The notes beneath the pieces are model-generated. The model saw nothing but the letters and a program-made list of their open reading frames with translations, made no database searches and had not been told where the DNA came from. Source: Escherichia coli (GTDB lineage Bacteria > Pseudomonadota > Gammaproteobacteria > Enterobacterales > Enterobacteriaceae). Taken from it: DNA of 64,000 nucleotides. The stretch lies in assembly GCF_003334305.1 (NCBI RefSeq), contig NZ_QOWS01000015.1; one strand, written 5' to 3'. Position 1 is the stretch's first letter, and each line of letters opens with the position of its first letter. Positions 11,417 through 13,064 of this stretch are shown piece after piece. Both the position numbers and the translations under genes were made by a program.

Positions 11417-11848
11417 CTAACCAGGTGTTTGCTGTTGTTCAATGTATTGGCGGATGACGGATATTGGCGCACCTCCGCAGCTACTGGCAAAATAGCCAGG
11501 ACTCCACAAAACGCCTTTGTAGTAATACCTGACTGCAATATCTGGTCGATCTCGTCGCAGTAACCTACCCGATACGCCTTTGAGGCTGTTTACCAGACTG
11601 GATATCGCCAGTTTGGGAGGATAGTTAATTAACAAATGGACGTGATCTGGTTCGCCATCCATTTCAACAAGTTCAGCTTCAAAATCAGCACATACATTTG
11701 AAAAGTAAGTGCGTAGTTTTTCTGTCGCGTCATGGTCAAAAATCTGGAGTCGGTATCTGGTGACAAAGACCAGGTGAACATGCATCAGGAAAACACAATG
11801 CCTTCCACGCCGGATATCGGTTTCTTTTTTCACAGACCAAAGTATCAT
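11417..11848 (-). CDS. tnpA: IS200/IS605-family Y1 (HUH) transposase TnpA
   Basis: 143 aa; HUH motif in PDHVHLLINYP; catalytic Tyr near C-terminus (VIRQYIEQQ); size typical of IS200 TnpA. Confidence 0.92.
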   Translation of the reverse strand: MILWSVKKETDIRRGRHCVFLMHVHLVFVTRYRLQIFDHDATEKLRTYFSNVCADFEAELVEMDGEPDHVHLLINYPPKLAISSLVNSLKGVSGRLLRRDRPDIAVRYYYKGVLWSPGYFASSCGGAPISVIRQYIEQQQTPG

Positions 11849-11855
11849 TTGACCT

Positions 11856-13064
11856 GTGAAACGATTACAGGCATTTAAATTCCAGTTAAGACCAGGTGGT
11901 CAACAGGAGTGTGAAATGAGGCGCTTCGCAGGCGCATGTCGTTTCGTTTTCAATCGTGCTCTGGCACGTCAGAATGAGAATCATGAGGCCGGTAATAAAT
12001 ACATCCCTTACGGGAAAATGGCTTCCTGGCTGGTTGAGTGGAAAAACGCCACTGAAACGCAATGGCTTAAAGATTCGCCCTCACAGCCATTGCAACAGTC
12101 ACTGAAAGACCTTGAGCGGGCTTACAAAAACTTCTTCCGGAAGCGGGCTGCTTTTCCCCGATTCAAAAAGCGGGGACAGAATGATGCATTCCGCTACCCG
12201 CAGGGCGTAAAGCTCGATCAGGAAAACAGCCGTATTTTTCTGCCGAAACTGGGCTGGATGCGCTACCGGAATAGCCGTCAGGTCACGGGTGTTGTGAAAA
12301 ATGTCACGGTCAGCCAGTCCTGCGGTAAGTGGTACATCAGTATTCAGACAGAAAGTGAAGTATCCACTCCGGTTCACCCTTCAGCATCAATGGTCGGGCT
12401 GGATGCTGGCGTGGCTAAACTCGCCACGCTGTCAGATGGCACAGTCTTTGAGCCTGTAAACAGTTTTCAGAAAAACCAGAAGACGCTGGCGAGACTTCAG
12501 CGACAGTTAAGCCGCAAGGTCAAATTCAGCAACAACTGGCAGAAGCAGAAACGCAAAATACAGCGACTGCATTCCCGTATCGCAAATATCCGCAGGGACT
12601 ACCTTCACAAAGTCACAACGACCGTCAGCAAAAACCACGCAATGATAGTCATTGAGGATTTGAAGGTCAGCAACATGTCAAAGTCAGCAGCGGGTACGGT
12701 CAGCCAGCCGGGGCGCAATGTCCGGGCAAAATCAGGTTTAAACCGTTCGATACTGGATCAGGGCTGGTATGAAATGCGCCGCCAGCTTGAGTACAAGCAG
12801 CTCTGGAGTGGCGGTCAGGTGCTTGCTGCTCCGCCAGCGTACACAAGCCAGCGTTGCGCGTGCTGTGGTCATACAGCGAAAGAAAATCGCCTGTCACAAA
12901 GTCAATTCAGATGCCAGGTATGTGGATATACAGCGAACGCCGATGTAAACGGCGCTCGTAACATTTTAGCGGCGGGGCACGCCGTTCTTGCCTGTGGAGA
13001 GATGGTGCAGTCAGGCCGCTCGTTGAAGCAGGAACCCACCGAAATGATTCAGGCGACAGCCTGA
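11856..13064 (+). CDS. tnpB: IS605-family TnpB (OrfB), RuvC-like RNA-guided endonuclease, GTG start
   Basis: 402 aa; RuvC-I GLDAGV, Ruv[11 protein letters not shown], Ruv[15 protein letters not shown]; CxxC...CxxC zinc finger (CACCGH...CQVCGY). Confidence 0.92.

Follow-up and report, generated by a model that had tools for sequence, protein, structure and literature searches.

In the bacterial bidirectional promoters described by Warman, Grainger and colleagues (PMC12825309), a pseudo-symmetric -10 element serves both strands and a -35 box lies on each side. The commonest spacing of the divergent transcription starts is 18 bp, and 10 and 23 bp are also frequent; a polymerase bound in one direction excludes the other, a competition that is measurable only if one direction is strong (PMC12825309). 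We compared with these promoters the junction between the divergent genes tnpA and tnpB of the insertion sequence IS609 in a 64,000-nucleotide stretch of Escherichia coli DNA (the window; contig NZ_QOWS01000015.1 of RefSeq assembly GCF_003334305.1). The comparison suggests that the junction is probably the core of a bidirectional promoter whose two mRNAs are predicted to lack leaders, and that the window carries a weakened derivative of it.

TnpB is the ancestor of Cas12 and its gene is among the most abundant in prokaryotes; the balance between transposase and TnpB in natural elements is little described in the literature that we searched. Classical leaderless mRNAs, such as lambda cI transcribed from PRM and Tn1721 tetR, need a 5' AUG; leaderless translation in E. 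coli depends strongly on this AUG, and GTG is poor. In IS200, a stem-loop hides the ribosome-binding site of tnpA and an antisense RNA, art200, is also present, while IS10 has pIN and pOUT.

Among the elements most closely related to that in the window, IS605 and IS606 of Helicobacter pylori (IS605 group) likewise contain divergent tnpA and tnpB genes, a Y1 transposase together with TnpB, subterminal hairpins, and TTAT/TCAA cleavage sites. IS609 of E. coli K-12 (yncK/insQ, NC_000913.3 1503161-1504908) is the same element, with a length of 1748 bp and identical ends and junction. The K-12 copy is located between ydcL and ydcO and its tnpA is a pseudogene, whereas the window copy is located in yoaG and its tnpA is intact.

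Start codons and promoter elements at the tnpA-tnpB junction

The genes and sequence elements of the junction are given below in window coordinates.

11417..11848, minus strand: tnpA open reading frame as annotated, Y1 HUH transposase, 143 amino acids, ATG 11846-11848
11831..11833, minus strand: conserved tnpA start position, GTG in the window; also the predicted leaderless transcription start
11856..13064, plus strand: tnpB, insQ-type RNA-guided endonuclease, 402 amino acids, GTG 11856-11858
11834..11855, no strand: core between the two conserved starts, with two overlapping -10 boxes and two 7-nt discriminators
11843..11848, plus strand: -10 box of the putative tnpB promoter, TATCAT (TATAAT in most relatives), 7 nt before the start codon
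11841..11846, minus strand: -10 box of the putative tnpA promoter, GATACT (TATACT, TATAGT or TATAAT in relatives), 7 nt before GTG 11833
11865..11870, minus strand: -35 box of the putative tnpA promoter, in tnpB codons 4-5, degenerate CTGTAA (TTGNNN in most relatives)
11821..11826, plus strand: -35 position of the putative tnpB promoter, in tnpA codons 3-5, degenerate TTTCTT (TTGTCA-like in most relatives)

The open reading frames, their start codons and the 7-nt separation (11849-11855) were as the initial annotation had reported them, and the RefSeq annotation agrees. The Prokaryotic Genome Annotation Pipeline (PGAP) picks ATG 11846-11848 for tnpA and GTG 11856-11858 for tnpB in an identical genome, and likewise for yncK/insQ of K-12. 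TnpA matched the family NF033573 with 142.8 bits (cutoff 55), and PF01797 was found on all homologs; the window translation carries an HVH motif and the tyrosine in RQYIEQQ, and its reading frame is intact. TnpB matched NF040570 with 384.8 bits (cutoff 100).

We collected 80 related loci, one genome per species, in which TnpA is 62-84% identical to that of the window, and located tnpA and tnpB in each locus. The relatives are spread over Gamma- and Betaproteobacteria, Desulfobacterota, Alicyclobacillus, Melainabacteria, and others. The divergent adjacency of tnpB and tnpA in these 80 loci indicates that the layout is not due to chance. The start-to-start distance was scorable in 73 relatives, and the tnpA start codon was compared in 77.

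The codon aligned to residue 6 of the annotated tnpA frame was ATG in about 72 of the 77 relatives, and GTG occurred at this position only in E. coli IS609 and in one other. Many annotated TnpA homologs consist of 138 amino acids, the first Met corresponding to that residue. The five codons 5' of the conserved position contained in-frame stops in at least six relatives, and their third positions were invariant, which is the reverse of coding behaviour; on these two grounds the extension MILWS was ruled out as coding. Within E. coli, a JJ1887-type copy possesses ATG at the conserved position and TATAAT in the gap and lacks the upstream ATG, and both genes of an APEC E. coli copy begin with ATG. 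E. coli variants thus keep the ancestral ATG and TATAAT states. To judge from these alignments, ATG 11846-11848 is a lineage-specific by-product in one E. coli sublineage, and the likely tnpA product has 138 rather than 143 amino acids. The T-to-G change that harms the tnpA -10 box also created this ATG, which annotation pipelines choose, and the apparent 7-bp gap is the consequence. In regards to tnpB, an in-frame TGA at 11850-11852 means that the gene cannot start further upstream, and its first codon was ATG in 57 of 63 relatives and is GTG in the window.

Because the conserved tnpA start is GTG 11831-11833, the meaningful start-to-start gap is 22 nt (11834-11855) and not 7 nt. This distance was 20-23 nt in 65 of the 73 scorable relatives (20 nt, n = 9; 21 nt, n = 23; 22 nt, n = 22; 23 nt, n = 11). 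The initial annotation had described almost no intergenic DNA and had proposed that one start might be internal. An internal start was indeed found, at codon 6 of the annotated tnpA frame. The gap likewise leaves no room for a conventional intergenic promoter, whereas its 7-nt length proved to be an annotation artefact of one lineage. Conserved internal starts that open a conventional promoter region had been named as grounds against the compact layout; these grounds apply by half, as the conserved start exists and widens the gap just to 22 nt.

We scanned 62 non-redundant relatives for sigma-70 promoters with a position weight matrix (PWM), using windows of the same loci as the background. 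One promoter per strand was found at a fixed place, with a -35 box TTGNNN, a spacer of 16-18 nt, and a -10 box TATANT that ends 7-9 nt before the ATG. The median scores were 9.9 for the tnpA promoter and 11.7 for the tnpB promoter, as compared with a background 99th percentile of 5.6. The two -10 hexamers merge into an 8-bp palindrome, A-N-T-A-T-A-N-T, which contains one -10 box per strand, each 6-8 nt from its start codon; its six specified positions agreed in 57 (A), 56 (T), 62 (A), 59 (T), 57 (A), and 57 (T) of the 62 relatives. No conserved Shine-Dalgarno sequence was observed ahead of the tnpA or the tnpB start in the relatives' alignment, and no conserved internal promoters were found inside the opposing genes of the relatives. 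Around the tnpA 5' end, RNAalifold predicted nothing beyond weak local stems, which lacked covariation, for both strands.

Codon usage in the opposing genes points to the same promoters. Gln5 of tnpB is encoded by CAA, which reads TTG on the opposite strand, in 41 of 45 relatives, as compared with 36% elsewhere in the same genes (p = 3e-14), and the bias persists in the GC-rich subset; codon 4 of tnpA has C as its third base in 36 of 40 relatives (p = 1e-5), where both p-values count kin sequences as independent. A codon bias of this kind would be explained only by a promoter on the opposite strand. The suggestion in the initial annotation that both promoters lie within the opposing coding sequences therefore applies to the two -35 boxes (tnpB codons 4-6 and tnpA codons 3-5), while the -10 boxes lie in the gap.

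These elements suggest that one short, near-symmetric promoter region would form the expression core of IS609 and would direct tnpA leftward and tnpB rightward. Given the -10/-35 geometry, the two transcripts would be expected to begin with the first base of their start codons, at a spacing of 23 bp, and would be leaderless mRNAs without a ribosome-binding site. We infer the tnpA transcription start at the conserved start codon from this geometry and from its conservation. The two polymerase-binding sites overlap completely, so only one polymerase could bind at a time, and strong firing in one direction could depress the other.

The shared symmetric -10 element of the known bidirectional promoters was present as the composite in the 62 relatives and survives in the window as GATACT and TATCAT. 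The flanking -35 boxes at 16-18 nt on both sides were present in most of the 62 relatives and are degenerate on both sides in the window. With 11856 - 11833 = 23, the junction would belong to the 23-bp bidirectional class, where the tnpB start was mapped at 11856 or 11855 and the tnpA start is predicted. IS609 differs from the described bidirectional promoters in that its transcription starts are predicted exactly at the start codons with no leader on either side, that its -35 boxes are located inside the opposing reading frames, and that the design is conserved across phyla in a mobile element. The layout had initially been called unusual; its retention in more than 60 relatives and its fit to a known class indicate that within its family it is not.

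An IS605-like relative from H. pylori (TnpA 61% identical) carries TAAAAT, 6 nt, and ATG on both strands. In this relative the gap is 36 nt and contains two separate -10 boxes, whereas the IS609 family has one shared palindrome. More distant plasmid elements (TnpA identity ~52%; L091 and L092) did not share the layout. A large clade of IS605 elements, which extends from Enterobacteria to Helicobacter and includes uncultured lineages, would hold its whole control region in about 60 bp, with one palindromic -10 element for both genes. The shared promoter accounts for the odd-looking annotation of tnpA and tnpB. No paper describing this IS609 promoter was found in the literature searched. The junction is a tidy case of known mechanisms and no new mechanism is required.

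Transcription starts in K-12 and the state of the E. coli copy

The experimental start-site data were published E. coli K-12 sets, and the mapping thus covers the K-12 copy, whose junction is identical to the window over 11780-11893. The mapped starts and the local inverted repeats are as follows.

11856, plus strand: tnpB transcription start in K-12, at the first base of GTG or 1 nt earlier; leaderless
11464..11500, plus strand: internal promoter and start, antisense within tnpA (TTGGCG, 18 nt, CAAAAT; start at 11500), giving a 356-nt leader for a tnpB-direction RNA
12330, minus strand: very weak tnpA-direction start within tnpB, 2 reads in K-12; the -35 box is poorer in the window (TGGATA) than in K-12 (TTGATA)
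11828..11861, minus strand: 14-bp inverted repeat specific to E. coli; in a leadered tnpA RNA it would pair across AGG, ATG 11848, and GTG 11833
11853..11871, plus strand: 7-bp stem-loop over the tnpB GTG, -8.6 kcal/mol, z = -4.2 (35-nt context)

The gene ydcM (insQ) is listed among the leaderless mRNAs of E. coli, with the transcription start at 1501681 equal to the gene start, a 5' untranslated region of 0, and 14 reads (Kim et al. 2012, Table S4, PMC3415461); the upstream sequence printed for this start ends ...AAAGTATCATTTGACCTG (Kim et al. 2012, PMC3415461). SMRT-Cappable-seq gave a start for b1432 at 1503656, with the coding sequence from 1503657 (PMC6131387, Supplementary Data 2). The tnpB mRNA in K-12 has thus been shown experimentally to be leaderless within 1 nt, beginning 7 nt after TATCAT, and the mapped start fits the geometry predicted from the relatives. 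The initial annotation had foreseen neither -10 boxes inside the gap nor leaderless mRNAs, the latter of which are now shown for tnpB. A mapped start within a few nucleotides of the start codon was found for tnpB only, and the tnpA start is predicted from the geometry.

Several points weigh against a shared leaderless promoter, in addition to the treatment of kin sequences as independent in the codon-bias tests. The two K-12 sets disagree by 1 nt on the tnpB start (G of GTG versus the preceding T). No tnpA-direction start at the junction was present in the K-12 tables examined; these tables are a weak test, because tnpA of K-12 is a pseudogene and its promoter is weakened in the same way, and the missing start is in line with the very weak tnpA promoter that this lineage carries. 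The upstream ATG is preceded by AGG at 4 nt and could be a working leadered start in this lineage. Finally, the heptamer TTGGTCT immediately before the conserved tnpA start is nearly invariant, which far exceeds the needs of a promoter discriminator and indicates that something else acts there as well.

Compared with the family, the window carries CTGTAA in place of TTGNNN, GATACT in place of TATACT, TATCAT in place of TATAAT, and, at both starts, GTG in place of ATG. The PWM scores were 3.2 for the tnpA promoter and 4.9 for the tnpB promoter, both of which are weak. The tnpB mRNA resembles the classical leaderless mRNAs in starting at the start codon without a Shine-Dalgarno sequence, and the copy differs from them in lacking a 5'-terminal AUG, as both starts are GUG in the window, whereas the relatives have AUG. 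Since leaderless translation favours a 5' AUG and both starts are GTG, a low yield of TnpA and TnpB is expected from the junction. The common E. coli IS609 is a weakened derivative of the family design, which fits its low activity. The initial annotation had also suggested that the compact layout may couple or limit the expression of the two genes. Coupling through polymerase competition is possible and is conditional on one strong direction; both promoters are weak in this copy.

The weakness of this copy could also mean that its tnpA side is effectively silent and decaying, that only tnpB is expressed, and that the close starts are without regulatory meaning in E. coli. The promoter score, the GTG at the ancestral start, and the lack of a detected tnpA junction start in K-12 agree with this explanation, as do the pseudogene state of the K-12 copy and the many E. 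coli copies that read through the tnpA stop codon. The intact window frame, with its HUH motif and catalytic tyrosine, and the polymorphic insertion in yoaG, which indicates that the element has moved within the species, speak against silence, and silence here would leave the family-level architecture unchanged. We regard silence of tnpA as a possible but rather unlikely state of this copy.

Transcription also begins within the genes, which agrees with the suggestion in the initial annotation that promoters are located in the opposing coding sequences. With 28 reads, the K-12 start at 1501325 (window 11500, in tnpA) exceeds all other mapped starts of the element (Kim et al. 2012, PMC3415461), and the 51-mer printed for it is identical to window 11450-11500. 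The PWM score of this promoter, 7.7, is above the background 99th percentile of 5.6; the promoter is specific to E. coli and is not kept in the relatives. The very weak start at 12330 in tnpB is also specific to E. coli. RNA from 11500 crosses most of tnpA in antisense and enters tnpB, and it may regulate tnpA as an antisense RNA or serve as a long tnpB mRNA that is poorly translated.

The arms of the 14-bp inverted repeat (family I7) are 86% complementary, and the repeat is not present in the relatives. The 7-bp stem at 11853-11871 matters only for the long transcript from 11500, in which it could hide the tnpB GTG. A terminator at 11853-11871 was rejected, since the stem is located at the tnpB 5' end and no T-run function was seen. 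Binding sites for two regulators were likewise rejected in the 14-bp repeat: the spacing is wrong for a LexA site (CTGT-N9-ACAG), and the order TCACA...TGTGA is reversed for a CRP site.

The 14-bp repeat is part of another explanation, according to which this lineage has switched to a leadered tnpA mRNA that is transcribed from a weak promoter in tnpB and is translated from ATG 11846-11848 by means of the AGG 4 nt upstream, a start site that the 14-bp stem hides in an IS200-like manner. Both the ATG and the AGG are there, the stem, which contains two G-U pairs, forms only in the tnpA-sense RNA, K-12 has a tnpA-direction start 482 nt upstream, the junction promoter is weakened, as is the ancestral start codon, and PGAP selects the upstream ATG. 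However, the upstream start is represented by just 2 reads and its -35 box is worse in the window, the upstream ATG is missing in the relatives and in the other E. coli variants, and the extra five residues are non-coding elsewhere. Furthermore, the 81-nt context folds no better than shuffled sequence (z = -0.92), and the stem arises partly because both genes start with GTG AAA in opposite directions. These observations make a switch to a leadered mRNA distinctly improbable.

IS609 resembles IS200 and IS10 in that transposase expression is kept very low, and the K-12 copy possesses an antisense RNA from 11500, and a stem specific to E. coli can cover the tnpA start. It differs from IS200 in that neither the antisense promoter nor the stem is conserved in the relatives. 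A repression hairpin of the IS200 type was not found at the family level: the stem is present only in the E. coli copy, and no consensus structure touches the first 20 nt. The conserved design lacks a tnpA leader, which rules out a leader hairpin as the ancestral control of IS609.

The TTGGTCT heptamer

The discriminator on the tnpA side of the bidirectional core consists of a heptamer that recurs inside tnpA.

11834..11840, minus strand: heptamer TTGGTCT, copy 1, directly 5' of the conserved tnpA start, positions -7 to -1
11767..11773, minus strand: heptamer copy 2, inside tnpA, CTGGTCT in the window, 67 nt downstream of copy 1

Copy 1 (TTGGTCT or TTGGYCT) was present at -7 to -1 in 59 of 63 relatives, with 1.2-2.0 bits per position. 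Copy 2 was TTGGTCT at +60 to +66 in 52 of 63 relatives and lay on the tnpA-sense strand in every case, and the heptamer occurred 166 times in forward and 5 times in reverse orientation. Copy 2 is the strongest synonymous-site constraint in tnpA and is held against codon preference: its Leu is encoded by TTG in 57 of 62 relatives, as compared with 17% elsewhere (p = 1e-33), and its Val by GTC in 56 of 63, as compared with 22% elsewhere (p = 1e-26). The heptamer is also kept in relatives without a canonical adjacent tnpB. In enterobacterial relatives, a third copy is located about 62 nt upstream, within tnpB.

Pyrimidines at -3 to -1, followed by a purine, would help to set the transcription start on the ATG, which explains neither the full invariance of copy 1 nor the presence of copy 2. 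A hairpin between the internal heptamer and a downstream GACCAA was rejected, as its 3' arm varies without compensation and does not explain the constraint. When the heptamer was read as a -35 box (TTGGTC, 16 nt, GATATT), the score was moderate, with a mean of 3.66; such a promoter would start transcription inside tnpA past the start codon, and copy 2 has no -10 partner. The heptamer thus matched no promoter, hairpin or binding site already described.

The spacing of the gap could instead be kept mainly as an operator for a regulator that binds the TTGGTCT heptamers, with the -10-like sequences being secondary. In favour of an operator, the heptamer exceeds either -10 box in conservation, recurs at a constant spacing on one strand only, is held against codon preference in its internal copy, and persists without a canonical tnpB neighbour. 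No candidate binding protein was found, however, and binding to duplex sites of this kind is not known for TnpA or TnpB; a second site is missing from the variable half of the gap, and neither the promoter geometry nor the mapped tnpB start needs an operator to account for it. An operator is a doubtful explanation of the gap, and the bidirectional promoter is preferred. It is with similar reserve that we consider the heptamer pair as a candidate cis-regulatory element, hitherto unrecognised, of a large IS605 clade. If this were true, the heptamers would be a possible operator pair through which a factor of the element or of the host turns off the tnpA side of the promoter, thereby setting the TnpA:TnpB ratio.

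The element, its insertion in yoaG and the 3' end of tnpB

The remaining features of the element are given below.

11360..13107, plus strand: IS609 element (IS200/IS605 family, IS605 group), 1748 bp, with the ends of K-12 IS609
11376..11396, plus strand: left-end subterminal hairpin CCCCGTCCTTCAGGGCGGGGA, the direct-repeat partner (family D3) of the right-end hairpin
13078..13098, plus strand: right-end subterminal hairpin CCTCGTCATTCAGGGCGTGGA, family D3, 86% identical to the left-end copy
12991..13034, plus strand: RAGATH-18 RNA motif, sub-threshold, 29.5 bits as compared with a gathering score of 44.9

The element is nearly identical to a named reference, since the K-12 feature 'insertion sequence:IS609' is also 1748 bp and the alignment across the junction shows a single differing base. 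It is inserted 3' of TTAT (11356-11359), within the yoaG 3' end, and TCAA (13104-13107) closes it on the right. The boundaries read TCTTAT|CCGGTG and GTCAA|GACACG, with no target duplication, and the K-12 copy has the same ends after TTTTAT. Motifs of the TTAT/TCAA type are typical of the IS200/IS605 family (PMC9956272). Both subterminal hairpins are imperfect palindromes in the same orientation, and there are no terminal inverted repeats, as in the IS605 group; the Y1 HUH TnpA, the TnpB gene, and the TTAT/TCAA insertion also place the element in this group.

The gene yoaG is broken after codon Tyr49, and its coding sequence picks up again at 13108. The rejoined flanks correspond to an uninterrupted yoaG, which was found in 4318 of 5418 E. 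coli genomes, and the insertion is thus polymorphic in E. coli. About 1100 of the 5418 genomes are without the intact site. IS609-like sequence was present in 5015 of 5426 complete E. coli genomes. The truncated yoaG (DUF1869; window 11213-11401 and 13108-13143) has its last 11 codons (DTENEHDVCGW) replaced by 13 element-encoded residues, and PGAP still annotates it as a 62-amino-acid protein. One side is flanked by leuE, yeaR, and yoaG, the opposite side by yeaQ and dgcP.

In many E. coli IS609 copies, TnpA has 168-224 amino acids; the stop codon TAG (window 11417-11419) has become CAG, and the frame reads on through the left-end hairpin. Some protein clusters of these long TnpA forms exceed 1000 members, and the window copy retains the TAG stop. 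In hundreds of Klebsiella, Salmonella, and E. coli plasmids, the similarity to IS609 starts with the second base of the tnpB start codon (window 11857), and there tnpB carries a different or absent left half. From this common boundary, the junction looks like a recombination or module boundary.

The Rfam search of the region gave nothing beyond the sub-threshold RAGATH-18 match. The strongest synonymous constraint of tnpB falls at its 3' end and coincides with this match; as the expected place of the guide-RNA scaffold, the tnpB 3' end served as the positive control of the synonymous-site scan. The matched region is probably part of the guide-RNA (omega RNA) scaffold. Within tnpB, a fixed codon run, ATC AGC nnn AAC CAC, was observed at window 12624-12638 on the plus strand (tnpB alignment columns 320-331), before the RuvC motif IVIEDL. 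The run consists of C-ending preferred codons throughout and may reflect plain codon preference rather than an embedded element.

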